Positions 1-46,571 of a stretch of 64,000 nucleotides of DNA are shown here, in pieces; position 1 is the stretch's first letter, and every line of letters starts with the position of its first letter. This stretch comes from Escherichia phage FL04: the sequence record PP358550, one strand, 5' to 3'. Made by a program: the position numbers and the translations under genes. The notes under the pieces were generated by a model. That model was not told where the DNA came from, did not search any database, and was given only the letters and a program-made list of their open reading frames with translations.

Positions 1-216
1 GAACGCATTTTATCTAAACTCTATAAACGCTGTGACCGTGGAGTATCAGCAAAGAAATTAGAAACTTTCAAAGAATTGTCTTTCATCGAAGCTAAAAAGG
101 ATGGATTAATTTATCAGTTGACAGATGGTTATTGGTGCTATGATAATACTCGCTATGACGCCGCGACTGATGCATTAAAAACATGTAATGACCATCTTCG
201 CAAAACCAGTATTTGA
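1..216 (+). CDS. hypothetical protein, C-terminal fragment (gene starts upstream of window)
   Basis: Frame 1 open from window edge to TGA at 214-216, immediately followed by RBS and ATG of next gene. Confidence 0.4.
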   Translation, partial: ERILSKLYKRCDRGVSAKKLETFKELSFIEAKKDGLIYQLTDGYWCYDNTRYDAATDALKTCNDHLRKTSI

Positions 217-226
217 GGATTATATT

Positions 227-424
227 ATGAAGGTTAAAACATTGGCTGATATGGATGAGATCGAGACTCAAGTACACGCGGCGTTAGTCGGTTATGAGTT
301 CGGGCGATTCCTTAATAAGTTCCATGATTATAAATGCTTAAATTGTGGTGCTCATAACGTAATTGGTGCTTGCTGTATTAATCCTGTTATAGTACCATAT
401 AAAAGAAATGAAACAGAAGAGTGA
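227..424 (+). CDS. hypothetical small Cys-rich protein
   Basis: Track ORF 188..424 trimmed to ATG 227 preceded by GAGGATTATATT; CxxC-containing product. Confidence 0.55.
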   Translation: MKVKTLADMDEIETQVHAALVGYEFGRFLNKFHDYKCLNCGAHNVIGACCINPVIVPYKRNETEE

Positions 425-434
425 GGAATACAAG

Positions 435-869
435 ATGAAAAAGTTGATGGCTACATTTCATGATATGCGAGATCTACCAGGTTTAAAACATGTCGATTTT
501 CCTGTTACTATGGAAGTGTCGGAATATGACGGTTATCATGATATTCTGTTCATTAAAAATACTGAGTTTATCCGCTTAGGCGCTAAACCTGCTGTGCTAT
601 ACCCAGAAGGAAACCGGACAGCGGTCAGAAAAACAAATTCTGTTAAATTGTCATTTAGTTCAGATGTTGGCTTGGAACCCGCTTTCGGATATACTCCGGT
701 CGAGATCACAAAATCGAATACTTCTTTCGTGAAAGTTGGAGAGAAAACGCATATTTCAACTATGCCGAACGGTGCACAATATCTATGGTCCGATTTCTGC
801 CAGCGTTATGAGCGTTTATCATGGGCTACCCGCTTATGGTGTGTTGAGTATAAGGAGATCACAAAATGA
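435..869 (+). CDS. hypothetical protein
   Basis: Track ORF 408..869 trimmed to ATG 435 after GAGGAA RBS. Confidence 0.55.
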   Translation: MKKLMATFHDMRDLPGLKHVDFPVTMEVSEYDGYHDILFIKNTEFIRLGAKPAVLYPEGNRTAVRKTNSVKLSFSSDVGLEPAFGYTPVEITKSNTSFVKVGEKTHISTMPNGAQYLWSDFCQRYERLSWATRLWCVEYKEITK

Positions 870-1114
870 TCACCGGATATATTCCATATTCAACGACAAA
901 ACACATTATCGGATTTGAAAACATAGAAAAGTCTTGCTTTCCTCTCAAGGTTGAAGTAGACTTTATTACAGCGAACGGGTGGGCTTACGTTACCGTAGAA
1001 GAAATGAAGCGCATTGGTTGGGAAAATTGCATACACCTACCGCATCTTATCCTAGATGTTCGCGCTGGTGAAATTGATATTGATGGAAAGATCTATGGAG
1101 ATAATGTAAAATGA
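866..1114 (+). CDS. hypothetical protein
   Basis: ORF with AAGGAG RBS; stop/start overlap with neighbours typical of phage early operons. Confidence 0.5.
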   Translation: MITGYIPYSTTKHIIGFENIEKSCFPLKVEVDFITANGWAYVTVEEMKRIGWENCIHLPHLILDVRAGEIDIDGKIYGDNVK

Positions 1115-1314
1115 AAATTAAAATTGAAATTTTTGACGATGGTGGATATTCTTTCATGAAAGGTGTTAAACTTCCTATCATCGTGGAAGGCCGACCGTAT
1201 GGGCATGATTATGTTGTTGAAACGCAGGAATTACAAAAAGCTGGAGTACCGATTAAAGGTTATTCTCCTGAGTATAAATGGTGTTTTCTTAGCAAAGAAG
1301 CCTGGGAAGTGTAA
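1111..1314 (+). CDS. hypothetical protein, small tandem paralog family member
   Basis: 67 aa; shares MKIxIEIxD..GY(S/T)FM..VKLPIIVEGRP...WCF pattern with next ORF. Confidence 0.55.
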   Translation: MKIKIEIFDDGGYSFMKGVKLPIIVEGRPYGHDYVVETQELQKAGVPIKGYSPEYKWCFLSKEAWEV

Positions 1315-1332
1315 TCAATTGAGGATTATATT

Positions 1333-1590
1333 ATGAAGATTGAAATTATTGACCGTGCTGGGTATACTTTCATGGAAAAAGTTAAACTTCCTATCATTGT
1401 TGAAGGCCGCCCCTTATGTCAAGGATTTATGATAAAGACCAGAGAACTACGAAATGCGGGTGTTCCTGTTGAATCATGTTTCAGTGATGATTATGAATGG
1501 TGTTTCAGTGGTTTGCGTGCATATAAAGTAAAAGAAGCACGAAAAGCATCATGGTTTACTCGCTTTAATAACTGGTTGAGGAAACTGTGA
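1333..1590 (+). CDS. hypothetical protein, small tandem paralog family member
   Basis: 85 aa; GAGGATTATATT-ATG start; paralog of 1111..1314. Confidence 0.6.
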   Translation: MKIEIIDRAGYTFMEKVKLPIIVEGRPLCQGFMIKTRELRNAGVPVESCFSDDYEWCFSGLRAYKVKEARKASWFTRFNNWLRKL

Positions 1591-1928
1591 TGGATGAAAT
1601 GAAAATGTATATGATCCTAAGTGATTCAGGATACACCTTCTTACAGGGTATTGATAGTGACTCGCGTCCCATTGTATATGGAAAGGAACATCCGAACATT
1701 CCTGGGATCATTCTTGTTACGACAAGATCACTTCGTCGAGTGTCGGAAAGTCCATACCTACAAAACGTAAAGCAGGACCGAGAATGGGCTTTCGAGTTAG
1801 GTAAAGACCTTGTTGAGTGGGTAAACTGTGAAGACAAGAACCAACGAAATCATGAAAGGAAGATTGCACGAATTTCACAGAGAAGAAAACTTGATGAAAT
1901 CAAAAACCGGATTCTACAATCAATGTAA
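1590..1928 (+). CDS. hypothetical protein, divergent paralog
   Basis: ATG 1590 after GAGGA; SGYTFLQG motif resembles neighbours. Confidence 0.5.
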   Translation: MDEMKMYMILSDSGYTFLQGIDSDSRPIVYGKEHPNIPGIILVTTRSLRRVSESPYLQNVKQDREWAFELGKDLVEWVNCEDKNQRNHERKIARISQRRKLDEIKNRILQSM

Positions 1929-1947
1929 TAGGGTATTCATTGTCCTG

Positions 1948-2157
1948 ATGGAGTCAGAAAACTATCCCGAACTCTCTAAAACGCGTTTTCCGTGCGTTGT
2001 TGAAGCATATAAGGTAAATGCACCTGATAAACGGTTTATCGTGTCAGCGAGCGAAATAAAGCGGTTGGGGGCGATTCCGAAACATGATGAATATGTGTTT
2101 CGTAAGGTGTGCTCTGTACATCATTTTGATGTAGTGGTTAATTCACTAAAATCATAA
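1948..2157 (+). CDS. hypothetical protein (start uncertain)
   Basis: Track ORF 1828..2157 overlaps upstream gene; trimmed to ATG 1948; weak RBS. Confidence 0.35.
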   Translation: MESENYPELSKTRFPCVVEAYKVNAPDKRFIVSASEIKRLGAIPKHDEYVFRKVCSVHHFDVVVNSLKS

Positions 2158-2165
2158 AAAAGTTG

Positions 2166-2194
2166 TTGACAGGGGATCGGTGATCCCCTATACT
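2166..2194 (+). promoter_or_regulatory. sigma70-type promoter with GGGGATCGGTGATCCCC palindrome as 17-bp spacer
   Basis: TTGACA 2166-2171, spacer 17, TATACT 2189-2194; two GATC sites in spacer. Confidence 0.6.
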
Positions 2195-2236
2195 ACACAC
2201 ATCAAAACGAAACACACTTTCTTAAGGAGAATCAAA

Positions 2237-2515
2237 ATGAGCAACCTGTCTTTCGCTAAAGTAGAAATTTCTAAAACTCGCGGTGGCTTTAAAATCAAAA
2301 CTTCCAATATCACTTCCTGCCGTGGTTGCGTCCGGTTTGCGTTCGACTTGGCAGCGAAGCTGGGTATTAAAACCTTTACCGTTGAGAGCGGATCTAACTG
2401 GACCACTCTGATTGTTACTGCCGCTTGGATTAATGGCGAGTATGTGGAAAAAGCATACTTTGACATTTTCTATGACTATGAAGAAAAATGCTTTTATGCA
2501 CTGCAAGACATGTAA
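2237..2515 (+). CDS. hypothetical protein
   Basis: ATG 2237 after AAGGAGAATCAAA RBS, downstream of promoter; track ORF 2180 start runs through promoter. Confidence 0.55.
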   Translation: MSNLSFAKVEISKTRGGFKIKTSNITSCRGCVRFAFDLAAKLGIKTFTVESGSNWTTLIVTAAWINGEYVEKAYFDIFYDYEEKCFYALQDM

Positions 2516-2525
2516 GGAGGATAAT

Positions 2526-2834
2526 GTGACAACACAAGATATTGTTAATGTGCTTTATATCTGGACTACTGGTGCAATGATCTCGTATCTAGTATTCTGC
2601 TTGTACGCCAGATTCGACAAGGACACCAAAGAGGTCGATACAGGAGCATTTTGTATTGCTGCAATCGTATGGCCTATAACGTGGACCGTGGTTGATATTG
2701 TTATGTGTTATAAGGGAATGAAATGTTTTGGTTTGATGATTGCTGGTAAACCGGAAGCGAAGCCGCGCACGCATAAAGGATTCAGTCCAAAACCAGTCGA
2801 TGACGGTCGATATAAACCGGAAGAAGATTTTTAA
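2526..2834 (+). CDS. hypothetical small membrane protein
   Basis: GTG start after AAGGAGG RBS; two hydrophobic helices in translation. Confidence 0.45.
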   Translation: MTTQDIVNVLYIWTTGAMISYLVFCLYARFDKDTKEVDTGAFCIAAIVWPITWTVVDIVMCYKGMKCFGLMIAGKPEAKPRTHKGFSPKPVDDGRYKPEEDF

Positions 2835-2840
2835 AAACTG

Positions 2841-2869
2841 TTGACATGAAAATGCGGTTATCATATAAT
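2841..2869 (+). promoter_or_regulatory. sigma70-type promoter
   Basis: TTGACA 2841-2846, 17-bp spacer, TATAAT 2864-2869; GCGGT/ACCGC dyad flanks the -10. Confidence 0.55.
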
Positions 2870-2903
2870 GACCGCATCAAATGAACGATGTGAGGATTAT
2901 ATT

Positions 2904-3212
2904 ATGTTTATCTCTTCTGCTACTCCAGTTAAAGTTTACGGCGAAACTGTGTATCTTCCGGCTGGCTATCGCTATGTTATCGTTGACCGTCACGGTGTAG
3001 TGTATGCTTTTAAAGGCCGTCCGGTTGAGATTGATTCTGAATACGGTACATGGGGATATAAAGCCGCATACATGGATATTCCTGATTTGGGAGTACGCTT
3101 AGGAAGATTTGATAACAATGTTAAACCATGCTTGATTAAGTATGCATCCTATGGTAAAACTGTTAAACCAAATAGCGTCGGCTGGATTGATGACGGCGTT
3201 AATGTGAAATAA
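2904..3212 (+). CDS. hypothetical protein
   Basis: GAGGATTATATT-ATG start at 2904. Confidence 0.55.
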   Translation: MFISSATPVKVYGETVYLPAGYRYVIVDRHGVVYAFKGRPVEIDSEYGTWGYKAAYMDIPDLGVRLGRFDNNVKPCLIKYASYGKTVKPNSVGWIDDGVNVK

Positions 3213-3226
3213 TGTGAGGTGAATTT

Positions 3227-3520
3227 ATGCTGTCTACTCGTAAAATGGTTGTTGGTGTCGCTGAAAATGCTTTAGAAATCTCTGACGAGGCTTTGACCGT
3301 AGCTTATGTTCAACGTGAAGAATTACTATTGAAACACGCGGATCTATTGGTTGAACGGAAAGAGACTATGAAAGCTGGTAAAAGCACGCTCGCGATTGCC
3401 ATTAAACTATCTGATAGTGAAGATGAGATCGTGGAGATCCACACTAAGATCAAGGAAGTAGAAAAATACTCTGAAATGCTGCGACATAATCTTGATGAAT
3501 TAGGGGTAAATCATGGCTAA
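3227..3520 (+). CDS. hypothetical protein
   Basis: ORF with GAGGTGA RBS. Confidence 0.55.
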   Translation: MLSTRKMVVGVAENALEISDEALTVAYVQREELLLKHADLLVERKETMKAGKSTLAIAIKLSDSEDEIVEIHTKIKEVEKYSEMLRHNLDELGVNHG

Positions 3521-3734
3521 GTTACGATCTGGACGAGTTTTAACGCTGGCTGAACTGAAAGAAAAAGGTTTAGACCCTGATTCTGTCGGTATTAGACCTA
3601 TTAATTACATTCTGTTTCTAGAGGGTAAACTCTTTACTAATGCTCATCCAGCATTAAATGCACCACATTTTTATAAGTGTAATGACTTTAACGGTTATAT
3701 CGTTCCAGAATATTTCTTAGAATTTGATGATTAG
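3513..3734 (+). CDS. hypothetical protein
   Basis: ORF with AGGGG RBS, overlapping upstream stop. Confidence 0.5.
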   Translation: MAKLRSGRVLTLAELKEKGLDPDSVGIRPINYILFLEGKLFTNAHPALNAPHFYKCNDFNGYIVPEYFLEFDD

Positions 3735-4020
3735 TATAAAACACTCACCGACCGGAAAGGGGTCGGTGATCTTCAATGACGATAAACCGTTAATCTTAAT
3801 TCGTAATGGTGACTGGACATTGCATGATACCCGTGTTACTATCCATTCACCGCCTAAAGAGATTCAACGGGAATTGGTTAGGATCACCCTAACTGATAGG
3901 CATAAAGAGGCGGTAGGCTATTCTCTTTTGAAATTAGGTGTTGACTTTCCTTTCGAGTATACGCTAACATTCAGAGAGCAGTCAGTGAAGCTAACAGAGA
4001 TTCTATTCTCTGAGATATGA
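3727..4020 (+). CDS. hypothetical protein
   Basis: ATG 3727 (track start 3724 is TTG). Confidence 0.5.
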   Translation: MISIKHSPTGKGSVIFNDDKPLILIRNGDWTLHDTRVTIHSPPKEIQRELVRITLTDRHKEAVGYSLLKLGVDFPFEYTLTFREQSVKLTEILFSEI

Positions 4021-4030
4021 GGATTATATA

Positions 4031-4462
4031 ATGGTTTATCCAACTCCTAGTAAGATTTACATTGACGATACTCATTTTCTTGTTGAAATTATGGGTATAA
4101 AGTTTAGTGGTAATGTTAAAATTGTAGAATGGGAATTGCACGGTCAACCTGTAACCGATTATGACCATTACATTCCTTTTTTGGGTGATGACAATTTTGT
4201 CTCGTTTGACCATGAAGGTTACATGATCTTTGAACAGTCTGACGTACCGACCTATCTAGCAATGATGCAAATTCCTACGAAGGTTTCTGTTGCTGAGGGT
4301 GATTGCGATTGTTGCGGTTGGTATACTGTAACAGATATTAAGCTGCCATCCGGTAAAGAACTCTATAACGAAGACCATTTTGGAAACTGCAATTTTCCGT
4401 GTGATTGGGATGAATTTTTCGAACTGGTAGAGATTGAGCGAACTTATTTGAGGAAGGGATAA
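4031..4462 (+). CDS. hypothetical protein
   Basis: GAGGATTATATA-ATG start; Cys cluster CDCCGW. Confidence 0.55.
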   Translation: MVYPTPSKIYIDDTHFLVEIMGIKFSGNVKIVEWELHGQPVTDYDHYIPFLGDDNFVSFDHEGYMIFEQSDVPTYLAMMQIPTKVSVAEGDCDCCGWYTVTDIKLPSGKELYNEDHFGNCNFPCDWDEFFELVEIERTYLRKG

Positions 4463-5274
4463 TGAAGAAAGCATTAGGTTTAATTCCCTATACTGGCAAT
4501 AAGGAAAAGTTATTGCCAAGTGTTAGTAAGTATTTCCCTAAGCACTATAACCGCTTTGTTGATGCCTTTTGTGGCGGCTTGAGCGTGTCTCTGTACGTCG
4601 AAGGGGATGTGCTGGCTAATGACTATGATCACCGCTTAATTGAAGCGTACAAAGCTATTGACGAGTGTCCTGATCCGGTTTTTATGATCAAGCGGATTAT
4701 TGCCGAAAATGGTTTGTCTCGCGAAGATAAAGACGCTTACATGACATTCCGTAAGAAGTATAACGAGAATCCAGATCCGCTATCTCTGTTTGTTCTGATT
4801 CAGCACAGTTTTAGCAACATTAACCGACATAACCGGAAGGGCGAATTTAATGCTAATTTTGGTCGCCGGACTTTTAACGAAAACGCGGTAGAGCGTGTCC
4901 TGAATTTTAAAGAAGAAAACAAAGACGGTCGAATCAGTTTTACGTCTGGTCGTTATGACGAGATCGAGATCTTGCCAGGTGATTTCGTTTATTTGGACCC
5001 GCCGTACCTTATCACTTCTGCGGAATATAATAAGTTCTGGAGTGACGAGGAAGAGATTAAATTCTATCAGTGGGTAGAATCTATTATGGCGCGTGGTTTT
5101 CAGTTTGGTATAAGTAATGTCACGCATCATAAGGGAAAGGCAAATGATCATCTTCTTGACTTTATCAAGCGGAATGATTTAAACTGCGTCTTGTTGAATA
5201 AGACCTATTGCCTAGATCGTTCAGGTGGCAAGTCTTCTGATACGCAAGAAGTTTATGTAACTAACGTAGATTGA
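4462..5274 (+). CDS. dam: DNA adenine (GATC) methyltransferase Dam
   Basis: Translation closely matches T4 Dam (as recalled) end to end, including DPPY catalytic motif and FCGG SAM-binding motif. Confidence 0.9.
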   Translation: MKKALGLIPYTGNKEKLLPSVSKYFPKHYNRFVDAFCGGLSVSLYVEGDVLANDYDHRLIEAYKAIDECPDPVFMIKRIIAENGLSREDKDAYMTFRKKYNENPDPLSLFVLIQHSFSNINRHNRKGEFNANFGRRTFNENAVERVLNFKEENKDGRISFTSGRYDEIEILPGDFVYLDPPYLITSAEYNKFWSDEEEIKFYQWVESIMARGFQFGISNVTHHKGKANDHLLDFIKRNDLNCVLLNKTYCLDRSGGKSSDTQEVYVTNVD

Positions 5275-5282
5275 GGTATAAC

Positions 5283-5564
5283 ATGGTAGAAATTTTTGGT
5301 TTTGAAGGTTACAACTGTAAGTATTGCCAGAATGCAAAGCGCCTTTGTGAATCGCGTAAGATCCCTTACATCTACATTCCGGTTAATGATGGTGTTGACG
5401 AAAACGGTCGCCCTGTAAAGATTGATTCTGTCATTGCCGATATTCAGGATCGAGCAGGGGTAGAAGTTATTGCCACCATGCCGCAGATTTTCTATAATGG
5501 TGATTATATTGGTGGCTTTGATGAGTTCCGATCCTTTGTAGTCAAAAACAAGATTAATGGTTAA
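5283..5564 (+). CDS. nrdC: NrdC-like glutaredoxin/thioredoxin
   Basis: CKYCQNAKRL redox motif and TMPQIF..GGFD match T4 NrdC; sits upstream of gene 49 as in T4. Confidence 0.8.
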   Translation: MVEIFGFEGYNCKYCQNAKRLCESRKIPYIYIPVNDGVDENGRPVKIDSVIADIQDRAGVEVIATMPQIFYNGDYIGGFDEFRSFVVKNKING

Positions 5565-5588
5565 ATACCTTCTTTGGAGGGTGAATTT

Positions 5589-6062
5589 ATGTTACTGACT
5601 GCTAAGAGTGCTAAAGAGTACAAACAAGAACTATTCGAAAAACAGGGGGGCATTTGCCCCCTTTGTCAATTGCCACTTTTTGAGGATATGAGCAAAAACC
5701 ATCTTGACCATGATCATGATCTAGATGGGAAAGGGCAAGGCCGAGTAAGGGGATTGCTTCATTCGTGTTGCAACCGCCTAGAAGGATCGTTGACCGGAGA
5801 CTTTAAACGGTTTGGTGTTGGTGCTTTAGGTGCTGATTTCGTTGTTTGGGCTACAAACTATGTTAATTACATCAAAGGAGACTACACCAACAATCATTTA
5901 CATCCTCAATATGCTGTTGATAAAGTAAAACGATTTTCACGCTTGACACGCGCGGAGATGGTTGCTATTATGGACGCAGAGGGTTTCGATTACTGCGACG
6001 CTGATACACGAGAAGAAATCACGAAGAAGTATAAGAAACAATTCATACAAAGATTAAGATAG
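5589..6062 (+). CDS. 49: endonuclease VII (Holliday junction resolvase)
   Basis: HLDHDHD..G.VRGLLH.CCN motif and overall similarity to T4 gp49. Confidence 0.9.
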   Translation: MLLTAKSAKEYKQELFEKQGGICPLCQLPLFEDMSKNHLDHDHDLDGKGQGRVRGLLHSCCNRLEGSLTGDFKRFGVGALGADFVVWATNYVNYIKGDYTNNHLHPQYAVDKVKRFSRLTRAEMVAIMDAEGFDYCDADTREEITKKYKKQFIQRLR

Positions 6063-6065
6063 TAG

Positions 6066-6094
6066 TTGACAATAAGAAATGGGAGTAGTAAAAT
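6066..6094 (+). promoter_or_regulatory. sigma70-type promoter with GGGAGTA/TACTCCC dyad around -10
   Basis: TTGACA 6066-6071, spacer 17, TAAAAT 6089-6094; palindrome 6081-6100. Confidence 0.6.
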
Positions 6095-6125
6095 ACTCCC
6101 ATCTAATCAAGAAGGAGAATCAACA

Positions 6126-6398
6126 ATGCGTAAGATGTTTAAATCCGGTGTGGCCTATGTTTTTAAATCTGAGCAAGCACATAAAGACTTCTTAGATGAT
6201 GAATACGAAGGGGTGAAAGATACCTACGAAGTCATCAAGAATGGGTTTACTGTTCTTAAAGTGTCACCTGTTGGTTATGTAAGTGAAATAGCGGTTGATG
6301 GGAAAACATACACCGCTAAAGACTTTGACCCGCGTTGGGAATTTATGCTGCTTCCGTGTGAGCGCATTCTGTTCCGTGCTGTTCAATTAGTGAAATGA
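6126..6398 (+). CDS. hypothetical protein, multi-copy ~90-aa domain family (single domain)
   Basis: ATG 6126 after AAGGAGAATCAACA; shares G.YxF.......F...V..GF.VL.V...G.V..I..DG..YT pattern with at least 8 other genes. Confidence 0.6.
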   Translation: MRKMFKSGVAYVFKSEQAHKDFLDDEYEGVKDTYEVIKNGFTVLKVSPVGYVSEIAVDGKTYTAKDFDPRWEFMLLPCERILFRAVQLVK

Positions 6399-6412
6399 TA
6401 GAGGATTATATT

Positions 6413-6973
6413 ATGGTACAGAAAACGTATAAATTGTATCCGGCTAAGTCTTCAAATGATGCTGTTTTTGAACGAGGTCGTTATTACACTTTCCGTAGTG
6501 CAGAAACAGCCGCAGAATTTATCAAACGATGTCCGCAACATAATAAGTTCTTGTATGACGTGCTTTGTAACGGCTTTAAAGTTCTCACTGTTGATGCGAT
6601 GGGGCGTGTGTATCTGGTAGAAACTCATGGGTATGAAGGTGCATCTGTTCTGATTGCTGCAAACGAGCGCAAATACTTTAAACGCATCACTAAAAAGCAG
6701 TTTGAAGAAATGAAACCAGTTAAGAAAGAAGAATCTCTGGAAGATCTGATTAACTTGTTTGGTAAAGTTCGCTCTATCTCCTTTGCGATTGAAGATGACA
6801 TTACCGACAATAAAATCTTTATCAAGAACGCGGAAGACCTGAAAGAGTTCCTTATTGAAAATAGATCTCGACTGGAAACCTTTCTTGAAAGTGAAATTAT
6901 TCGACATGATACCTACGCTAAATTCAGCGCCGAGAAAGTGGAAGAACTGAAAGAGATTAAAAAGTCACTTTAA
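6413..6973 (+). CDS. hypothetical protein, multi-copy domain family (domain plus helical C-terminal tail)
   Basis: GAGGATTATATT-ATG start; contains NERKYFKRI motif. Confidence 0.6.
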   Translation: MVQKTYKLYPAKSSNDAVFERGRYYTFRSAETAAEFIKRCPQHNKFLYDVLCNGFKVLTVDAMGRVYLVETHGYEGASVLIAANERKYFKRITKKQFEEMKPVKKEESLEDLINLFGKVRSISFAIEDDITDNKIFIKNAEDLKEFLIENRSRLETFLESEIIRHDTYAKFSAEKVEELKEIKKSL

Positions 6974-6976
6974 CGC

Positions 6977-7005
6977 TTGACATGATGAAACGGGAGTAGT
7001 AAGAT
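6977..7005 (+). promoter_or_regulatory. sigma70-type promoter with GGGAGTA/TACTCCC dyad
   Basis: TTGACA 6977-6982, spacer 17, TAAGAT 7000-7005; palindrome 6992-7011. Confidence 0.6.
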
Positions 7006-7036
7006 ACTCCCATCTAAACAACGAGAGGATTATATT

Positions 7037-8215
7037 ATGGCTAAATTCTTTGAAGGTCATTACTATGCATTCCGTGAAGGCGGAAAAGATGAGTTTCTAG
7101 ACTTTTCTCGCTATTCAATTATTCTGACCGATGCTTCGCGCCGTGGTCATATTCGGGTTGCTGAAATCGTAGAAAAGGGCTTTAAAGTATTAGAAAAAGA
7201 TGACCACGGTCATGTTATTACTATTGAAGCTGGAGATGTAGTTTATTCCGCTAATGATATTGTTGATTATTGGGCTACTATGATTATGCACAATGAGCGT
7301 AAATACTTTAAACGCATCTCAAAAGAGGCATACGAAGCGATGAACAAGAAAGAGGATGCAATGCCGACTTACTTTGAAAAAGGTAAATGTTATTCGTTTA
7401 CCCCAGAAGGTTTGCAAGAATTTAAGCGATTCTGGGGAGAGCATGATCCAGATCACAAAGAAGCTATGAAACTTGTTGATTTTGTCGAATATGGCTTTTT
7501 AGTTGAAGAAGAATTGCACGGATCAGCTACCATGATCACCGCGAAAGGTGAAACTGTTAAGGCAGATCGTTTTTGTGATCAATGGAATTGCTTGTTTGAC
7601 GGTAGCGAATTTGAATACTTCGCGGAAATCACGAAACAACAATTTCATTCTATGCAAGCGGATGGTCAGAGATTTAAAGTAGGTGAACGCTACAAGCCAA
7701 ATCAGCATAATTTGCCATATTGGTTTACCGCTGAAACTGTATCAAGTCATGTTGTTGAAATTGTTCAAAAGCTGGGACAAGGATTTAAGGTGACTAAAGT
7801 AGATGATTATGGAAGTGTTGACGCGGTTGAAATTGATGGTGTAGAATATACACCGAAATCATTCGGGCTTTGCTGGTATCACCTGATCAGCAATGATGAA
7901 CGTTATAACTTTGTTGAACTGCCATCTGAACCGGAAGAAGCACTAGAAGATCATGATCATCTGTCTGAACTGGTTAAGCTGTTTGGTGATCTGCCGGATG
8001 GTGTAGGCGTGGCGGTAATGGGTGAAGGTGCTGTTATTCGAAACCTGAAAGACTTTAAAAAGTTCTTGATTGACATGCTGCCTAAACTTGATGATAATCT
8101 CGATACAGATATTCAGAATCGCAAAGAAATTGTTAAAGAGACTGAAAAAGAGATTGAAGAGATTCGAGCAATTCGCCAGAAGGTGAAAGCAGTAAAGAAA
8201 AAAGTTAGTGCTTGA
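7037..8215 (+). CDS. hypothetical protein, multi-copy domain family (three tandem domains plus C-terminal tail)
   Basis: 392 aa; internal repeats with HNERKYFKRI / EYFAEITKQQF / ERYNFVEL motifs. Confidence 0.65.
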   Translation: MAKFFEGHYYAFREGGKDEFLDFSRYSIILTDASRRGHIRVAEIVEKGFKVLEKDDHGHVITIEAGDVVYSANDIVDYWATMIMHNERKYFKRISKEAYEAMNKKEDAMPTYFEKGKCYSFTPEGLQEFKRFWGEHDPDHKEAMKLVDFVEYGFLVEEELHGSATMITAKGETVKADRFCDQWNCLFDGSEFEYFAEITKQQFHSMQADGQRFKVGERYKPNQHNLPYWFTAETVSSHVVEIVQKLGQGFKVTKVDDYGSVDAVEIDGVEYTPKSFGLCWYHLISNDERYNFVELPSEPEEALEDHDHLSELVKLFGDLPDGVGVAVMGEGAVIRNLKDFKKFLIDMLPKLDDNLDTDIQNRKEIVKETEKEIEEIRAIRQKVKAVKKKVSA

Positions 8216-8239
8216 CATGCGAAGGGAGTATGCTATAAT
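8212..8239 (+). promoter_or_regulatory. sigma70-type promoter with GGGAGTA/TACTCCC dyad
   Basis: TTGACA 8212-8217, spacer 16, TATAAT 8234-8239; palindrome 8224-8245. Confidence 0.6.
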
Positions 8240-8269
8240 ACTCCCACTTAACAACGAGAGGATTATATT

Positions 8270-8764
8270 ATGTGGGTACAAGATGTTTGGTATACTGTAA
8301 CTAAAGAAAACCTTGACGCATTCAGCGACCAATCTTGCGCTAATAGCTCAATTGCTGGTATACTTACTGATGTGTTTGGTGGTGTAGATAAAATTCGTTT
8401 TAAAGTTGTTGTTAATTCTATGGGGTGTGTAAAAGACCTATACACCGAAGATAAAGACCTTGATCTTGAACTTCGTCTTCGTATTGATAATGCAAGTCTA
8501 GGTTATTGGTTTGAAGATAACGAATATGAATACTTCACACCAGCAATTAAAGTTTTTGCGACTAAACTGGAAGCTGTACTGAATCTCCGACCAATTAATG
8601 TTGACGGTTACATTATCAAAAATATTCAGGATTGGGAGTTGTATCTAGATCAGGTTATCCGAAATAGTAAGCAGGATGCCGCTAATAAGAAGCGACAAGA
8701 GATTAAACAGCTTAAAGCTGAACTAGAAGCTAAAGAAAAAGAATTAGCAGAACTGGTAAAATAA
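8270..8764 (+). CDS. hypothetical protein with C-terminal coiled coil
   Basis: GAGGATTATATT-ATG start; KQLKAELEAKEKELAEL tail. Confidence 0.55.
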   Translation: MWVQDVWYTVTKENLDAFSDQSCANSSIAGILTDVFGGVDKIRFKVVVNSMGCVKDLYTEDKDLDLELRLRIDNASLGYWFEDNEYEYFTPAIKVFATKLEAVLNLRPINVDGYIIKNIQDWELYLDQVIRNSKQDAANKKRQEIKQLKAELEAKEKELAELVK

Positions 8765-8773
8765 CTATCAACG

Positions 8774-8796
8774 AGCGGGAGAAATCCCGCTTTTTC
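8774..8796 (+). terminator. rho-independent terminator
   Basis: GCGGGA-GAAA-TCCCGC hairpin followed by TTTTT. Confidence 0.6.
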
Positions 8797-8808
8797 ATAG
8801 GTGATACA

Positions 8809-10671
8809 ATGGAAAAACTAATCAAAGACATTACAGAGATCGCAACGGGTAAAGAAAACGAAGTGAGCAAAGAGAACGCGAACAAAGACGCGCGAACATT
8901 CCCGACACGTCGAGATCTGATTGCTGGCGCTGTGTCTAAACAGATTGCTAAAACCGTGTTACCTGAGCACATCTATAAAGCGCATGTAGACGGTGATATT
9001 CATTATCATGATATGGATTATGCACCAGCTATGCCGTTTACTAACTGCTGTCTTGTTAATCTCAAAGACATGTTAGAGAATGGTTTTAAATTGGGTAGCG
9101 CACAAATCGAAAGTCCGAAATCAATCGGCGTTGCTTGTGCTGTAACCGCTCAAATTATCGCACAGGTGGCAAGTCATCAATATGGCGGGACCACAATTGC
9201 AAACATCGATCAGGTTTTAGCGCCATACGTTGAGAAAACATATCATAAACACCTTGCTGATGCCGAAACCTACGGAATCAAAGCTGATACTCTCTATGCA
9301 CAAGAGAAGACAGAAAAAGAAACGCTAGACGGGTATCAAGCGTTGGAATATGAAATCAACACTTTGTTCTCCACCAACGGTCAAACGCCTTTTGTGACTT
9401 TAACCTTTGGTATGGGTACTAGCTGGGAAGAAAAACTGATTCAGAAAGCGATCCTGAAAGTTCGAACTAAAGGTTTAGGTAAAGATGGTATAACTCCGGT
9501 GTTTCCTAAGCTGGTGATGTTCTTAGAAGAAGGATTAAACCTTAAACCGGAAGATCCGAACTACGACATTAAGCAACTTGCATTGGAATGTTCTAGTAAG
9601 CGTCTTTACCCTGATTATATCTCTGCGAAGAATAACCGTAGTATCACTGGATCTAGTGTTCCGGTTAGCCCGATGGGTTGTCGTAGCTTCCTGGGTGTGT
9701 GGCATAATGAGAAAGGCGAAGAAGTATTAGACGGACGTAATAACTTAGGTGTTGTGACTCTGAATCTTCCGCGTATTGCCCTTATTGCCGCGCGTCGTGC
9801 TGGTAAAGCGTCTGTAATGCGCAGAATTGAGCTATTCGAACAAGAGCTAGCTAATCGTATGCCTATTTGCTTTGATGCGCTCATGAGTCGCGTAGACGCT
9901 TTAAAAGGGGCTAAAGCCAATGTTGCTCCGGTGCTGTATACAGAAGGTGCATTTTTCCGTATTCATCAAAACGATGAAATTTTGGAAGTGCTGAAAGATG
10001 GTCGCGCTAGTATCTCTCTTGGATATATTGGTTTACATGAGGTATTGAGCGTCCTGTTTGGTGTTCATCCGTTTGATTCGGAAGATGCGCAGCGATACGG
10101 TAAACATATTCTTAAGATCTTGCGTCATTATACTGAAAAATGGAAGGACGAAACCGGACTTGGGTTTAGTCTTTACGGTACGCCAGCCGAGAGCCTTTGC
10201 TATCGATTTAATCGACTGGACCGAGAGCAATTTGGTATTGTTAAGGGTGCTACCGATAAAGACTGGTACACCAACTCATTCCACCTTGACGTAGACCGGA
10301 AAGTCACTCCATTTGAGAAAATCGACTTTGAGAAAGATTATCACTGGCTGGCGTCCGGTGGCATGATCTCTTATGTTGAGTTCCCAGACATGAAAAACAA
10401 CCTGAAAGGTCTTGAAACTGTAGTGGACTATGCAATGGATAAATTGCACTACTTCGGTGTTAATACTCCTTCTGATGTGTGTCATGTATGCGGGTCTACT
10501 AAGGAAATGAGAGCGACCGAGTTTGGTTTTGTTTGTCCTGATTGCGGAAATGATAATCTGGAAAAGATGAATGTTATCCGTCGCGTTAGTGGATATCTTG
10601 GATCTGTTGATCTGCGTCCATTTAACCACGGGAAACATTCCGAGATGGTAAACCGCGTTAAGCACATGTAA
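8809..10671 (+). CDS. nrdD: anaerobic ribonucleoside-triphosphate reductase
   Basis: 620 aa; C-terminal Zn ribbon (CHVCGS...CPDCG) and glycyl-radical motif RVSGYLG. Confidence 0.95.
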   Translation: MEKLIKDITEIATGKENEVSKENANKDARTFPTRRDLIAGAVSKQIAKTVLPEHIYKAHVDGDIHYHDMDYAPAMPFTNCCLVNLKDMLENGFKLGSAQIESPKSIGVACAVTAQIIAQVASHQYGGTTIANIDQVLAPYVEKTYHKHLADAETYGIKADTLYAQEKTEKETLDGYQALEYEINTLFSTNGQTPFVTLTFGMGTSWEEKLIQKAILKVRTKGLGKDGITPVFPKLVMFLEEGLNLKPEDPNYDIKQLALECSSKRLYPDYISAKNNRSITGSSVPVSPMGCRSFLGVWHNEKGEEVLDGRNNLGVVTLNLPRIALIAARRAGKASVMRRIELFEQELANRMPICFDALMSRVDALKGAKANVAPVLYTEGAFFRIHQNDEILEVLKDGRASISLGYIGLHEVLSVLFGVHPFDSEDAQRYGKHILKILRHYTEKWKDETGLGFSLYGTPAESLCYRFNRLDREQFGIVKGATDKDWYTNSFHLDVDRKVTPFEKIDFEKDYHWLASGGMISYVEFPDMKNNLKGLETVVDYAMDKLHYFGVNTPSDVCHVCGSTKEMRATEFGFVCPDCGNDNLEKMNVIRRVSGYLGSVDLRPFNHGKHSEMVNRVKHM

Positions 10672-11892: not shown

Positions 11893-11934
11893 ATATTCAT
11901 CAAGACGAGATACAACTTTACAGGAGAATCAAAT

Positions 11935-13569: not shown

Positions 13570-13581
13570 GGGGAATATATT

Positions 13582-14415
13582 ATGAAATGGGAAATTGGTA
13601 AAACTTACACCTGGAAAGATGAAAACGCTAAAACTGAGTTTATTACTAACGGAGAAGGTGTTCTTTCTCCACTTAACAGCGATATTAGTGCAGCTATTGG
13701 TGACAAGCCATTTACCATCATCGAGATCGAGGGTAACGGTTGGATTGATGCAATAGAGCTAGACGGTGTTTATCATACGGCGAAAACTGCTACAGGAAAA
13801 GACATTTGGACTGCAACATATTTCTTTAGTCCATTCGATAGAAAATTCTTTCGTGAAGTTGAAGAAGTTCCTCCTAAATGGGAAGTTGGTAAAACTTATA
13901 CTTGGAAAGATGAAGACGCAAAAGTGATGTTTTCTAGTATTGGTCATATTACCAATCGTAAAATTGCTGAGTGGATAGGAGATGATACTTTTACGGTATC
14001 TTCCGTTGATTCTGTTGGCATCGTTACTATGATCGACGTCAATAATGAGAGTGCTTGCGGAACATTTAATCCTCATTCAGCGGGTGTTGATGATGTTGAT
14101 GCTGTGTGGTTTGTTGAGCGTGAACGAAAATTCTTTCGTGAAGTTGAAGCAGTGAAAGAACCAGAAGAAAAGGTGAACGATGATTCTAAGATCGTTGGAC
14201 AGTTGAAACGTCTGTTTAGTAGTCGTTACGGCCTGACAATGGTTAAATTTGGCGAAGCAAATGAAGGTAAAACCTTTGAACGTTTCGATGATTTCATCGC
14301 AGCACTTGACAAGATGGACGAAATAATGCAAGATCGCCAGAAGATTAAAGACCTTCAAGAAGACATTAAACGTCGTGAAGTTGAATTTTTGATTGGTAAA
14401 GAGCGAGGATGGTAA
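13582..14415 (+). CDS. hypothetical protein, multi-copy domain family (two tandem domains plus tail)
   Basis: Two internal copies: KWE(I/V)GKTYTWKDE...RKFFREVE. Confidence 0.65.
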   Translation: MKWEIGKTYTWKDENAKTEFITNGEGVLSPLNSDISAAIGDKPFTIIEIEGNGWIDAIELDGVYHTAKTATGKDIWTATYFFSPFDRKFFREVEEVPPKWEVGKTYTWKDEDAKVMFSSIGHITNRKIAEWIGDDTFTVSSVDSVGIVTMIDVNNESACGTFNPHSAGVDDVDAVWFVERERKFFREVEAVKEPEEKVNDDSKIVGQLKRLFSSRYGLTMVKFGEANEGKTFERFDDFIAALDKMDEIMQDRQKIKDLQEDIKRREVEFLIGKERGW

Positions 14416-15310: not shown

Positions 15311-15331
15311 TTCTTGAGTGAGGAATATATT

Positions 15332-15619
15332 ATGTTAGTACACAATGCAATCGCACACATGGTTTACTCTCGATTTGGGTGCATGGAAGAAATCAATATT
15401 ACCGACGCGGATTTAGATCTGATGCAAGTCGAAGGTCAGACATATCTGAAAAATAACGGCGTGAATATCGGTAAAGCGCGTGTGCGTGAATTGTTGGTTG
15501 AATATATTCTCTCTGAATTTGGCATTAGTGCTTTCGGTGTGAAAGAAATTGCACCTAAGCGCGAAATTTCTGATAAAATGATCAAGAAATGCCAGAAAGC
15601 ACGACGTAAGGGTTTCTAA
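15332..15619 (+). CDS. hypothetical protein
   Basis: ATG 15332 after GAGGAATATATT. Confidence 0.5.
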   Translation: MLVHNAIAHMVYSRFGCMEEINITDADLDLMQVEGQTYLKNNGVNIGKARVRELLVEYILSEFGISAFGVKEIAPKREISDKMIKKCQKARRKGF

Positions 15620-19590: not shown

Positions 19591-19904
19591 AAACACTTGC
19601 ACAAAAGGTAATGGAATTTAATGAGGCATTGCCTATGTTTGCTCGACGTAAGGGGATCTCCGTTGATGTATGGTATTCCAAAGAGCATGAAGAAGTTCGG
19701 ATGATGGTCGAAAAGCGACTCACTGATACTACTGTTAAGTGTAAGTTTCGTTCTATTCCTCGCGCGGAAATAGAATTTGATGAAAGCTATTACTTTACGC
19801 TGCGTCATGTGCTGAAACAAGCAGTGGATGAACTTTTAGAAGACCTGAAACAATATGAGATTGAACGAGGAACATATTATGAATACGACTATGGTCGCGG
19901 CTGA
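19587..19904 (+). CDS. hypothetical protein
   Basis: ORF with stop/start overlap. Confidence 0.5.
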   Translation: MKTLAQKVMEFNEALPMFARRKGISVDVWYSKEHEEVRMMVEKRLTDTTVKCKFRSIPRAEIEFDESYYFTLRHVLKQAVDELLEDLKQYEIERGTYYEYDYGRG

Positions 19905-20439
19905 TTCTGATTTGTTGGTAATGGAACATTTTATTAAATTGGTGCACACATACACACTAAAACAATCATATTACAAGAATCCGATCTATGGCTATCTGAA
20001 AGCGAATATTGATCGGACAGTTGTTAAGATGTGGTATGATGACGGCTACCGTCGTTACCTTAAAATCATTAATCCAAAAGAGTTGATGATAACTATGGAT
20101 ATTGGCGACTTTGTAAAAGACAAAGTAGAATCCATTATTAAGAGTGTGGTTGGTGAATATAATCCGATTGTATATGGTGCTTTCGTCCAGTGGAAACAAT
20201 CCAGCAAATATTATTTTCCTAATACTCCATTGACGCTAACAGGTTGGGTCTCTGTCATGCATAGCGGGGTATTCCTGGAAGCGTCAGAGACGATGTATAA
20301 AGGGTATATTCTCCCACATCGACTGGTGAAGTGTGATTACCGCTTGACTGTAGGTGAATTTCGCGATATTCTGGAACAACAAGCGGAAGACCTGCAAGGT
20401 GAAATTGAAGAATTTTTAGAGGAACATAAACTAAAATGA
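19879..20439 (+). CDS. hypothetical protein
   Basis: ATG 19879 after GAGGAACATATT. Confidence 0.5.
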   Translation: MNTTMVAADSDLLVMEHFIKLVHTYTLKQSYYKNPIYGYLKANIDRTVVKMWYDDGYRRYLKIINPKELMITMDIGDFVKDKVESIIKSVVGEYNPIVYGAFVQWKQSSKYYFPNTPLTLTGWVSVMHSGVFLEASETMYKGYILPHRLVKCDYRLTVGEFRDILEQQAEDLQGEIEEFLEEHKLK

Positions 20440-25126: not shown

Positions 25127-25704
25127 TGTTAGGTCAATTTTTCGGTGAAGATGATACACAATTAAACGAGCATGAAATTGCATGGCGCTCTCGTGATTGG
25201 GAAAAGGTGTCTGAATTAGCTGACACATTCACCGAGAAAACCGACAATGCATTATTTGCTCTGATGGATCATATCACCTTAGATAAACAGCGCGTTAATG
25301 TTGGGAACAATTCTGCATATAACCAGAGATGGATTAATACCGCTCTTTCCCAGCACGCAGATTGCCTATATAGCGCGTATGTGATGAATTTAATCGGTCA
25401 TGGCCTCCCAGATCAAATGCATTTTGATTATCTCTTACAGAGTATTTCTAAGGGGAAACGATACGGTAAATGGGCTAAACTAACAGAAGAATTGGACCAA
25501 AAATTGGTTTTAATGGCAGTGGCGAAAGCATATTGTGTAAATATGGATGACGCCCGGTTTTATCTCGATTTGGCTAATGAAAAGGGATATATGGACAAGT
25601 TATTGAAGCACATTAAACCGTATGCGACCGATGAACTTTTGGCGGGTGTTACTAAGAATCAGACAGAAAGGAAACGACTTAAAAAGATTATAGAAAGGTG
25701 GTAA
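25126..25704 (+). CDS. 62: clamp loader small subunit gp62
   Basis: Similarity to T4 gp62; ATG overlaps gp44 stop (TAATG). Confidence 0.9.
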   Translation: MLGQFFGEDDTQLNEHEIAWRSRDWEKVSELADTFTEKTDNALFALMDHITLDKQRVNVGNNSAYNQRWINTALSQHADCLYSAYVMNLIGHGLPDQMHFDYLLQSISKGKRYGKWAKLTEELDQKLVLMAVAKAYCVNMDDARFYLDLANEKGYMDKLLKHIKPYATDELLAGVTKNQTERKRLKKIIERW

Positions 25705-25705
25705 A

Positions 25706-26068
25706 ATGATTGAAATTAATTTGATTAGTCCTGAAAACTTCCTTAAAATTAAGGAGACTTTAACCCGCTGCGGCATTGCCAACAATCGAGACAAGACGCT
25801 GTATCAGTCTTGTCATATTCTCCAGAAGAAAGGGCGCTATTACATCGTTCATTTCAAGGAGTTGTTGAAATTAGATGGTCGTAGTGTTAAAATGACGTGG
25901 GAAGATGAATTACGCCGTAATAACATTGCAAAACTTCTGGCGCAGTGGAATCTGTGTACCCTGATTGATAGTGATTTTGAAACTACCGAAGTTAATAATT
26001 TCCGTGTATTGTCTTTCAAACAGAAAGAAGAGTGGACGCTGATCGAGAAATATCAGATCGGACGATAA
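25706..26068 (+). CDS. regA: translational repressor RegA
   Basis: Near-identical stretches to T4 RegA (LYQSCHILQKKG.YYIVHFKE). Confidence 0.9.
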   Translation: MIEINLISPENFLKIKETLTRCGIANNRDKTLYQSCHILQKKGRYYIVHFKELLKLDGRSVKMTWEDELRRNNIAKLLAQWNLCTLIDSDFETTEVNNFRVLSFKQKEEWTLIEKYQIGR

Positions 26069-28829: not shown

Positions 28830-28846
28830 GATAAAGTGTGTATAAT
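28819..28846 (+). promoter_or_regulatory. sigma70-type promoter (extended -10), inside 3' end of gene 43
   Basis: TTGACA 28819-28824, spacer 16, TGTGTATAAT ending 28846; GC-rich leader hairpin 28847-28873. Confidence 0.5.
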
Positions 28847-28890
28847 GGCGGGTGTTGGGTGACGATACCCGCCAATGTGAGAAATATATT

Positions 28891-29079
28891 ATGAGAGACA
28901 TTGAAAAGATTAAACGTGAACGTGAGGAAGGCATAGAGCACTTCAAGAAAGTTCATGGAAATCACAGCAACGAAGTATTTGTGACGATCGATGTTGATGC
29001 GATGAAAAAGTTAATTCAAGAGCACTACAAAGATCGAATAACAATGAAGCAATTAAAGTATTACGGATTAACTGAATAG
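28891..29079 (+). CDS. hypothetical protein
   Basis: ATG 28891 after GAGAAATATATT; occupies the slot where T4 has imm/42/beta-gt. Confidence 0.5.
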   Translation: MRDIEKIKREREEGIEHFKKVHGNHSNEVFVTIDVDAMKKLIQEHYKDRITMKQLKYYGLTE

Positions 29080-30195: not shown

Positions 30196-30216
30196 ATATC
30201 TAGAGAGGATTATATT

Positions 30217-30534
30217 ATGGATAAGAAACCAACAAGTTTAGAAGAAGCACACAGCTTGATTCAAGAAGCAATGAAGACAGTTATCCAGGAACTGATAATT
30301 GTTGATGAAGAGGGAGAACATCATATTGTCTATATTCATAATGTTGAATACGATCCAGACACTAAAGGTATTGTGGTCGACTACTCCACGCCGTCAGATC
30401 GTGATGTGGTATATCCACACGTCATTAAGGCGTTAACCGCGCAGATCAAAGAAGCAGAAGAAAAGTTGAAAAAAGAAACTTTCTGGTATAAACTCAAGAC
30501 CTTTGTTATGCGTGTAGTTGGGGGCTATGTATGA
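30217..30534 (+). CDS. hypothetical protein (positional equivalent of T4 gene 40)
   Basis: GAGGATTATATT-ATG; hydrophobic C-terminus; lies between uvsX and 41. Confidence 0.5.
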   Translation: MDKKPTSLEEAHSLIQEAMKTVIQELIIVDEEGEHHIVYIHNVEYDPDTKGIVVDYSTPSDRDVVYPHVIKALTAQIKEAEEKLKKETFWYKLKTFVMRVVGGYV

Positions 30535-35737: not shown

Positions 35738-35766
35738 ACACACATACCAACTAAGGAGAATCAATT

Positions 35767-39492: not shown

Positions 39493-39595
39493 GTCATATA
39501 CTTGACAATCACTCAATTTTTAATATGATTGTTGCAGCCGTCTTTGTGGCGGTTGCAGTAAGTTATGGTTATGTTATGTATTGGAGAGAGAAAAA

Positions 39596-40324
39596 GTGAA
39601 CATCAAAAAGTTTATTGTTGATGTTCTGGAGGCGAAAAGCGGAAATAGACTAAACTCAAATCTTTTTAAAGAAAATAAAATTCCAGAAATGGAAAAATTG
39701 TATCCTGCGGAATTTCAGATTATAAGGAATGAGTTTAAGTTCTGTAATGGAGGTCTCAGAAATCAACAACCATATAACGAGGCTGTTTATAGATTGCGCC
39801 ACGGAATAACAGGAAGAGTTAAATGTGCAAGATGCCCAAATCCTGTAAATTATCATACATACTCTAGAGGCTATCATAAATTTTGCTGTTCTCGTTGCGC
39901 ATCGTTGGACCAGGCACAAAACATAAAGATTGAACGAGAATGCGCTAAATGTGGTAAACCATTTGTTGCAATAAACGTATCTCAAAAGTATTGTTCTGAT
40001 GAGTGTCGATTGTTCGAGAAGCGAGAGCGAGAACTAGATAGGCCATATCATCATGCCGAAAATGGTATAAAAATATCAAAAAGAGAAGCGTTAGAAATTT
40101 TAGGCAGAGTTGACAATTGCGAGATATGCGGTGTAAAATTCATAAATGAACGATGCGGCGTGAGAAAACGCCAAAAGTGGAAACATCTTGACCATAATCA
40201 TAAGACTGGTAAGATAAGAGGTGTTCTTTGTGGAAAATGTAATGCCGGATTAGGGATGTTCAAAGACGATCCTCAAAGATTATATGCGGCATTGGAATAC
40301 CTGAAACGAACTGACGGAGAATGA
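39596..40324 (+). CDS. HNH-type endonuclease with Endonuclease VII-like catalytic domain and N-terminal multi-CxxC region
   Basis: GTG start after GGAGAGAG; C-terminal HLDHNHKTGKIRGVLCGKCN matches EndoVII motif; several CxxC pairs; visibly AT-richer than flanks. Confidence 0.7.
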   Translation: MNIKKFIVDVLEAKSGNRLNSNLFKENKIPEMEKLYPAEFQIIRNEFKFCNGGLRNQQPYNEAVYRLRHGITGRVKCARCPNPVNYHTYSRGYHKFCCSRCASLDQAQNIKIERECAKCGKPFVAINVSQKYCSDECRLFEKRERELDRPYHHAENGIKISKREALEILGRVDNCEICGVKFINERCGVRKRQKWKHLDHNHKTGKIRGVLCGKCNAGLGMFKDDPQRLYAALEYLKRTDGE

Positions 40325-42585: not shown

Positions 42586-42780
42586 ATGAAACCGTTTAAG
42601 AATGAAGAAACTCAAAAATTTTGTGAAAAAATTGCAGAAATCTACTTGACAGGGAATAAGGAAAAAGCTAATATTATGTTCAAAGAGTCGGTTTCCATGA
42701 TGAAAGTAGCACGCTGGGAACTGATCGCAATGCAAGACCAAATTCGTTATCTAGTAACAAAGGAGAATCAAAATGCGTAA
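42586..42780 (+). CDS. hypothetical protein
   Basis: ATG 42586. Confidence 0.45.
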   Translation: MKPFKNEETQKFCEKIAEIYLTGNKEKANIMFKESVSMMKVARWELIAMQDQIRYLVTKENQNA

Positions 42781-43236: not shown

Positions 43237-43250
43237 GTGAGGATTATATT

Positions 43251-45359: not shown

Positions 45360-45370
45360 GAGGTGATATT

Positions 45371-45514: not shown

Positions 45515-45564
45515 GATGTGAATCGGGCGGCGATAGTCGCCCAACTAATAGAGGAATGAATACT

Positions 45565-46557: not shown

Positions 46558-46571
46558 CAGAGGAATTAATT

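Follow-up and report, generated by a model that had tools for sequence, protein, structure and literature searches.

Many early genes in the DNA studied here, a window of 64,000 nucleotides from an Escherichia phage, begin with almost the same 15 nucleotides, ending in the start codon. Is this sequence a shared operator that is read by a regulatory protein such as RegA, as a preliminary description of the window had suggested, or is it the form that an ordinary ribosome-binding site takes in these phages? The window belongs to the genus Krischvirus (95-97% identity to RB49), and its positions 1-9000 are 95-97% identical to RB49, MIZ4, JSE and about 55 more Krischvirus genomes. Window 1-45359 is collinear with RB49 45190-1 and window 45360-64000 with RB49 164018-146818; the early genes of the RB49 minus strand lie on the plus strand of the window. 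Gene names and gene starts were taken from the annotated, assembled complete RB49 genome. The gp37 distal tail-fibre and adhesin region (window 55478-58978) is 73-79% identical to RB49 or unalignable, between flanks of 95-97%, and represents the replacement of a host-range cassette. Inserted upstream of topoisomerase gene 39 (window 39581-40324) is an ORF of 247 aa with an Endonuclease_7 (HNH-type) domain; this ORF is not present in RB49 and is probably a mobile homing endonuclease, and the RB49 HNH endonuclease ORF040 is missing from the window at ~18258, directly before gene 47.

The first question is how often the sequence recurs. The claim that it is reused at many early-gene starts was confirmed by a motif search for GAGGATTATATTATG with up to two mismatches, which returned 16 matches in the window, all on the plus strand and all at gene ATGs (9 exact, 3 with one mismatch and 4 with two), whereas shuffled sequences gave a mean of 0.23 matches and a maximum of 1. 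The final ATG of each of the 16 copies is the first codon of an ORF and an annotated RB49 start on the coding strand. Five copies have a near-consensus sigma70 promoter with a stem-loop 30-44 nt upstream, the promoter-early stem-loop (PeSL) arrangement. The copies are as follows.

215-229, plus strand: exact copy, start of ORF 227-424 (RB49 ORF077); the upstream TGA stop overlaps GAGG
1321-1335, plus strand: exact copy, start of ORF 1333-1590 (RB49 ORF073), tandem paralogue of 1111-1314; upstream stop 7 nt before
2892-2906, plus strand: exact copy, start of ORF 2904-3212 (RB49 ORF068); consensus PeSL promoter 2841-2869, 34 nt upstream
4019-4033, plus strand: one mismatch (GAGGATTATATAATG), start of ORF 4031-4462 (RB49 ORF064); upstream TGA overlaps the motif
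6401-6415, plus strand: exact copy, start of ORF 6413-6973 (RB49 ORF059); upstream stop 3 nt before
7025-7039, plus strand: exact copy, start of frd.2 7037-8215; PeSL promoter and stem-loop 6977-7005, 31 nt upstream
8258-8272, plus strand: exact copy, start of ORF 8270-8764 (RB49 ORF057); PeSL promoter 8212-8239, 30 nt upstream
13570-13584, plus strand: two mismatches (GGGGAATATATTATG), start of ORF 13582-14415 (RB49 ORF049); upstream stop 1 nt before
15320-15334, plus strand: one mismatch (GAGGAATATATTATG), start of gene 55.2 15332-15619; upstream stop 10 nt before
19867-19881, plus strand: two mismatches (GAGGAACATATTATG), start of ORF 19879-20439 (RB49 ORF036); within the 3' end of the upstream gene
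28879-28893, plus strand: two mismatches (GAGAAATATATTATG), start of ORF 28891-29079 (RB49 ORF025); consensus promoter 28819-28846, 44 nt upstream
30205-30219, plus strand: exact copy, start of gene 40 30217-30534; directly behind the uvsX terminator-like hairpin
43239-43253, plus strand: exact copy, start of rIIA 43251-45359; upstream stop 3 nt before
51453-51467, plus strand: one mismatch (GAGGAATATATTATG), start of ORF 51465-52211 (RB49 ORF260); PeSL promoter 51402-51430, 34 nt upstream
52507-52521, plus strand: exact copy, start of ORF 52519-52710 (RB49 ORF258); upstream stop 12 nt before
52709-52723, plus strand: two mismatches (GAGGATTACATCATG), start of ORF 52721-53089 (RB49 ORF257); upstream TGA overlaps the motif

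The conserved stretch runs from the base before GAGG exactly to the ATG, and the second codons differ. As described earlier, the base preceding GAGG is T or A (15 of 16 copies). The GAGG core lies 8 nt ahead of the ATG, and GAGG spacing across RB49 peaks at 7-8 nt. Nine of the 16 copies are at -1 to 12 nt from an upstream stop codon, with a TGA overlapping GAGG at three of them (215, 4019 and 52709), and the copy at 19867, inside the upstream gene, is a tenth; a single copy sits behind a hairpin (uvsX). The earlier list of copies needs three small corrections. The one at start 19879 had been overlooked. Start 52721, entered there as a one-mismatch variant, has two mismatches, and start 38239, entered as a looser copy, does have a version of the motif, but a shifted one with a 9-nt spacer (GAGGAATATTATTATG).

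Is this repetition more than a Shine-Dalgarno sequence and its spacer would produce? In RB49, 25 of the 276 annotated starts carry the 15-mer (11 exact, 9 with one mismatch and 5 with two), and the numbers of genes at Hamming distances 0 to 4 from it (11, 9, 5, 12 and 20) form a continuum. Taking the commonest base in each column of the 218 early RB49 initiation regions also gives exactly the motif (GGGGATTATATT-ATG), and the consensus of the late genes nearly equals it. Among the ribosome-binding sites of the phage, the 15-mer is the modal form. However, information per spacer column in the early initiation regions is only 0.1-0.5 bit, and a position-independent profile therefore predicts no more than 0.03 exact 12-mers in the early starts, against 11 seen (Poisson P about 1e-24), and 3.0 copies within two mismatches, against 24 seen. 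These counts support the statement of the preliminary description that the sequence is more conserved than a Shine-Dalgarno sequence plus spacer requires. Gene-content-matched regions of T4 (80 genes) and of Kanagawavirus IME523 (77 genes), both of which encode RegA, served as controls. In each, the commonest 10-mer ahead of an ATG occurs only twice, and at most two mismatches over 14 nt separate 5 of the 3160 pairs of initiation regions in T4 and 3 of the 2926 in IME523, compared with 50 of the 3081 in RB49, so that near-identical pairs are 10-16 times fewer in the controls. As the excess over expectation in RB49 is accompanied by a rarity of near-identical pairs in both controls, the stereotypy is real and lineage-specific, and the repeated 15-mer is unusual among T4-type phages. 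A scan of IMG/VR for exact occurrences of the 15-mer found, among the matches listed, only single chance-level ones in unrelated contigs, and a search of the running text of papers for both motif strings found unrelated primer sequences only.

The carriers were described as early genes, and this is what the RB49 annotation indicates: 24 of the 25 are in the early region and one is late (Fisher P=0.036). Those in the early region comprise 16 ORFan-named and 8 T4-named genes, the same ratio as among the other early genes (99 and 65), and the preference for ORFans in hyperplastic regions that marks PeSL cassettes is not seen among them. The T4-named carriers are rIIA, 40, cd, frd, frd.2, 55.2, tk.4 and 1. 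The most highly expressed genes, 32, 45 and 23, do not use the 15-mer.

Constraint across strains was measured as the share of variable columns in an alignment of window 200-9000 and eight further Krischvirus genomes (nine in total). None of the 28 columns of the motif's GAGG varied, and 3 of the 56 columns of its spacer did (5.4%), as compared with 19.5% of third codon positions (P=0.005 versus the motif spacer), 7.6% of the columns in spacers of other genes and 8.6% of those in other intergenic DNA, neither of the last two differing significantly from the motif spacer. Hence, the constraint on the motif is that of any functional ribosome-binding site, with no hyper-conservation. The spacer variants tolerated among the nine genomes are ATTATACT, ATTATAAT, AATATATT and ATTGTATT, and natural point variants of the spacer include AUUAUACU and AAUAUAUU; three single-base spacer variants all occur in phage E26 alone. 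There is also no sign of a superior ribosome-binding site, because the predicted RNA accessibility of motif-bearing initiation regions is no different from that of other classes, and the notion of a specially unstructured ribosome-binding site was rejected on these grounds. A role of TATATT as a -10 element or late promoter was also rejected, since transcription would begin inside the coding region and there is neither a -35 partner nor TATAAATA.

The explanation that we consider best, and whose chances we put at about even, is that the 15-mer is a Krischvirus-specific, standardised translation initiation region that works as an ordinary ribosome-binding site and has been multiplied through duplication and recombination. 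Pairing of the Shine-Dalgarno sequence with the 3' end of 16S rRNA is an established rule; at these sites the 4-nt GAGG core would pair with CCUC of the rRNA, with a fixed 8-nt A/U spacer, AUUAUAUU, between the core and the AUG. Most copies serve internal cistrons, right behind or overlapping the upstream stop, while a minority are the 3' ends of PeSL cassettes. As a result of the stop-adjacent or overlapping position, ribosomes could load or re-initiate at the junctions of early polycistronic mRNAs. The module may have spread by tandem duplication and by recombination between short conserved regulatory sequences, as in the ORF shuffling of these phages, and ordinary purifying selection on working ribosome-binding sites may have kept the copies alike. 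A dedicated trans-acting repressor would be unnecessary. Several observations speak against this explanation: the early bias of the carriers, their lack of ORFan enrichment, the ordinary predicted accessibility and the absence of the 15-mer from genes 32, 45 and 23.

How, then, did so many genes come to share the sequence? Within the aligned set, a 229-bp extra ORF is found only in E26 (708-953) and G2494 (735-953), at window ~412, and is bracketed by the initiation-region direct repeat ACAGAAGAGTGAGGAAnAnAnAATGAA; this layout is direct evidence of ORF gain or loss via recombination between initiation regions. The tandem paralogues at 1111-1314 and 1333-1590 (MKIKIEIF... and MKIEIID...) have the motif on the second gene only, and the PeSL-driven neighbours frd.2 and ORF057, both with the motif, share the pVOG family VOG4723 (phage kaaroe annotation). 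JSE and G2494 are without 221 bp (window 1112-1333) and have thereby lost one gene and one motif copy. The motif was considered as the breakpoint of this deletion and rejected, as recombination joined the paralogous 5' coding ends. No indel junction turned up within the 15-mer, and none of the breakpoints between the window and RB49 lies on it.

PeSL cassettes account for part of the distribution. The copies at 2892, 7025, 8258, 28879 and 51453 are the 3' extremity (Shine-Dalgarno sequence and start codon) of such a cassette. A promoter lies 28-49 nt upstream of these 5 of 16 window copies and of about 8 of the 24 early-region copies in RB49, so that the promoter which characterizes PeSLs is missing from most copies. 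We conclude that the module is related to the published PeSL cassettes, yet largely independent of them, at internal junctions. In the PeSL promoters at 6977-7024, 8212-8257 and 51402-51452, a G/C stem-loop (GGGAGTA...TACTCCC) spans the -10 hexamer, so promoter and attenuator hairpin occupy the same bases. In W115, aligned at window ~2170, there is a 41-bp tandem duplication within a PeSL promoter and stem-loop (AGGGGATCGGTGATCCCCTATACTACACACATCAAAACGA).

Mobility of cassettes is not sufficient by itself, because the core, vertically inherited genes rIIA, 40, cd, frd and 1 carry the motif in RB49, and gene 40 lacks it in both T4 and IME523. Old genes must therefore have acquired the sequence, through gene conversion or convergence toward a single form, an outcome that a shared binding factor would also give.

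One such factor would be RegA. The preliminary description had placed its gene at 25706-26068, correctly so (plus strand; Pfam PF01818, E=1.6e-54; PDB 1REG, E=4e-48), and the RNA-contact residues K14, T18, R21, W81 and F106 are all five conserved in comparison with 1REG. Under this explanation, the Shine-Dalgarno sequence, spacer and AUG (GAGGAUUAUAUUAUG as RNA) would form a RegA binding site at which RegA competes with the 30S subunit and shuts off about 25 early genes together. The intact contact residues fit, and so does the motif in several respects: it is rich in A and U, lies directly against the AUG and has the AUUAUG ending of the T4 operators of rIIB and gene 44, it shares the 8-mer GATTATAT with gene 44 of RB49, and it is found on core genes with a bias toward early ones. 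Genes cd and 1, which are RegA-sensitive in T4, bear the motif or a close variant. The initiation region of T4 rIIA equals the T4 gene 44 operator (AATGAGGAAATTATG), and rIIA is a carrier here. The two T4 copies of this identical region, AATGAGGAAATTATGATTA, are at 2189 and 31866 on the minus strand; as the gene 44 copy is a classic RegA operator, T4 rIIA should bind RegA equally well.

The RegA explanation is nevertheless weakened, because the RB49 orthologues of the classic T4 targets 44, 45, 62, regA, rIIB, dexA and 56 are without the motif, their starts having AGGTGA-type or other Shine-Dalgarno sequences. In addition, the motif has neither the 5' A tract of T4 sites nor the UAA repeats of the RB69 type. 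The roughly 30 natural RegA sites of T4 share no strict common sequence (review PMC3014915), so a RegA regulon neither requires nor predicts near-identical sites; a literature search for verified T4 targets added nothing to this review. T4 and IME523 themselves encode RegA but have diverse initiation regions. A further argument comes from the initiation region of regA itself, GGTAAAATGATTGAA, which is kept in T4, IME523 and RB49, that is, in three genera; this conservation argues for a T4-like preference, with an A tract beside the AUG, which is absent from the motif (UAUAUUAUG). The region, GGTAA[A/C]-ATG-ATTGAA, is near-identical at window 25690-25720, at 30340 in T4 and at 18515 in a Kanagawavirus genome, and its near-identity would be consistent with a conserved autoregulatory site. 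Finally, conservation of the 15-mer stops at the ATG, with nothing kept 3' of the AUG, and its spacer is under no tighter constraint than the spacers of other genes. The suggestion of a shared translational operator has therefore fared unevenly: the uniform early initiation region and the regA gene are both present, but the operator role drew no support from the tests run and was weakened by them, and we regard a RegA operator as unlikely.

Unbiased clustering of the RB49 initiation regions gave two large families, the 15-mer and a second one, (A)GGAGAATCAAA, which is followed by 0-2 nt and the ATG and is present at about 30 RB49 genes. Its nine copies in the window are as follows.

2226-2236: copy 1
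6114-6124: copy 2
11923-11933: copy 3
35755-35765: copy 4
42762-42772: copy 5
49654-49664: copy 6
49927-49937: copy 7
50946-50956: copy 8
51228-51238: copy 9

In RB49, 29 of 30 genes of this family have a near-consensus sigma70 promoter (PeSL) 29-46 nt upstream, and 28 are ORFan-named and 2 T4-named. This promoter association makes GGAGAATCAAA the typical PeSL tail and sets the 15-mer apart as a largely independent module of internal junctions.

The second family bears on another possible reader, the endoribonuclease RegB acting with ribosomal protein S1. The T4 site of RegB/S1 is the 11-nt GGAGRAYARAA, in which A6, A8 and A11 are most conserved and position 7 is a pyrimidine (Durand et al. 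2006, PMC1702504). Under this explanation, the motif from GGA onward (GGAUUAUAUUA) would be a substrate of RegB and S1, and cutting in the Shine-Dalgarno sequence would inactivate the early mRNAs. The motif does match GGA, A6, U7, A8 and A11 of the T4 site, and cutting at GGAU sites is possible. The gene regB is encoded in RB49 outside the window, with an initiation region of the T4 type (GGATAATAAAATG), and its GGAU Shine-Dalgarno sequence has been reported as cleaved (review PMC3014915). Moreover, T4 orf 55.2 has a GGAU RegB site and 55.2 carries a motif variant here. However, position 4 of the motif is U, which is rarely tolerated and then only with a strict A-rich tail, and positions 5, 9 and 10 are U rather than A/R, so that, of G4 and the tail RAYARAA, only A6, U7, A8 and A11 fit. 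The exact copies have the GGA triplet, but several close variants have lost it (GAGGTTT, GAGGCTT, GAGATTT and GAGAAAT), and such losses are seen ahead of tk.4, gene 1, frd and ORF025; the conserved core is TATATT-ATG rather than GGA. The other stereotyped region, GGAGAATCAAA, comes much closer to the RegB consensus, with 10 of 11 positions matching GGAGRAYARAA, and the immediate-early first cistrons that carry it are therefore a candidate RegB regulon; on this match it is a better RegB candidate than the 15-mer, and RegB cuts would be expected in GGAGAAUCAAA. RegB/S1 as the reader of the 15-mer is, in our view, quite improbable.

It is also conceivable that a Krischvirus-specific RNA- or DNA-binding factor of another kind, or host RNase E acting at RN/WUU-like AU-rich sites, reads the motif. 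The lineage-specific stereotypy, absent from T4 and Kanagawavirus, and the strong over-representation of exact copies are what such a reader would produce. However, no candidate factor was found, nothing is conserved outside the Shine-Dalgarno sequence, spacer and ATG, the constraint across strains is ordinary, and AU-rich sequences fit the preferences of RNase E trivially. We judge this explanation highly improbable.

Taken further, the two families could be read as a two-code system, Krischvirus-specific and post-transcriptional, in which early mRNAs are sorted by their ribosome-binding sites. One nearly invariant 12-nt Shine-Dalgarno sequence and spacer, the 15-mer, would be the operator for about 25 early genes (among them rIIA, cd, 40, frd and gene 1), read by a RegA of narrowed specificity or by another factor, and GGAGAATCAAA would define a second regulon under RegB/S1. 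We think it unlikely that the system exists in this form.

What is at stake differs between the explanations. If the 15-mer is only a standard start signal, the early regions of RB49-like phages are built from very few interchangeable regulatory parts, namely a consensus promoter, a stem-loop and two stereotyped ribosome-binding sites; the published PeSL picture would then be widened from promoters to internal gene junctions, and the 15-mer would be a simple marker of gene starts in these genomes. If instead a factor reads it, the motif would define an unusually clean translational regulon, made up of a single sequence and about 25 genes, with a candidate protein already known, and the specificity of RegA or RegB beyond T4 and RB69 would be directly testable.

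The 15-mer can finally be compared with known systems. Like a generic Shine-Dalgarno region of E. coli or its phages, it has a GAGG core within the usual spacing range of 5-9 nt, an A at -3 and an AUG, and is specific to the coding strand; it differs in a spacer that is nearly fixed over about 25 unrelated genes, a fixity not found in the T4 and Kanagawavirus controls. The T4 RegA operators of gene 44 (AAUGAGGAAAUUAUG) and rIIB (AAAAUUAUGUAC) are similarly A/U-rich, lie at or beside the AUG of early genes and combine GAGGA, A/U and AUUAUG. However, T4 sites are heterogeneous and have an A tract, whereas the motif has a longer, 8-nt spacer of alternating U and A, and orthologues of most classic T4 targets do not carry it here. 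With the RegB/S1 target of T4 it shares the character of a conserved Shine-Dalgarno-plus-spacer element over many early starts, as well as GGA, A6, Y7, A8 and A11, but it has GGAU in place of GGAG, U at 5, 9 and 10, and variants without GGA. The PeSLs (Arbiol et al. 2010, PMC2839356; Comeau et al. 2014, PMC4122927) are mobile cassettes of RB49 and phi1, the motif's own lineage, and are also repeated, near-identical regulatory elements with a Shine-Dalgarno sequence and ATG at their end; recombination between such repeats gains or loses ORFs. In contrast to PeSLs, whose typical tail is GGAGAATCAAA, 10 of the 16 window copies of the 15-mer (about two thirds in RB49) are at internal junctions without promoter or stem-loop, and its carriers include conserved core genes.
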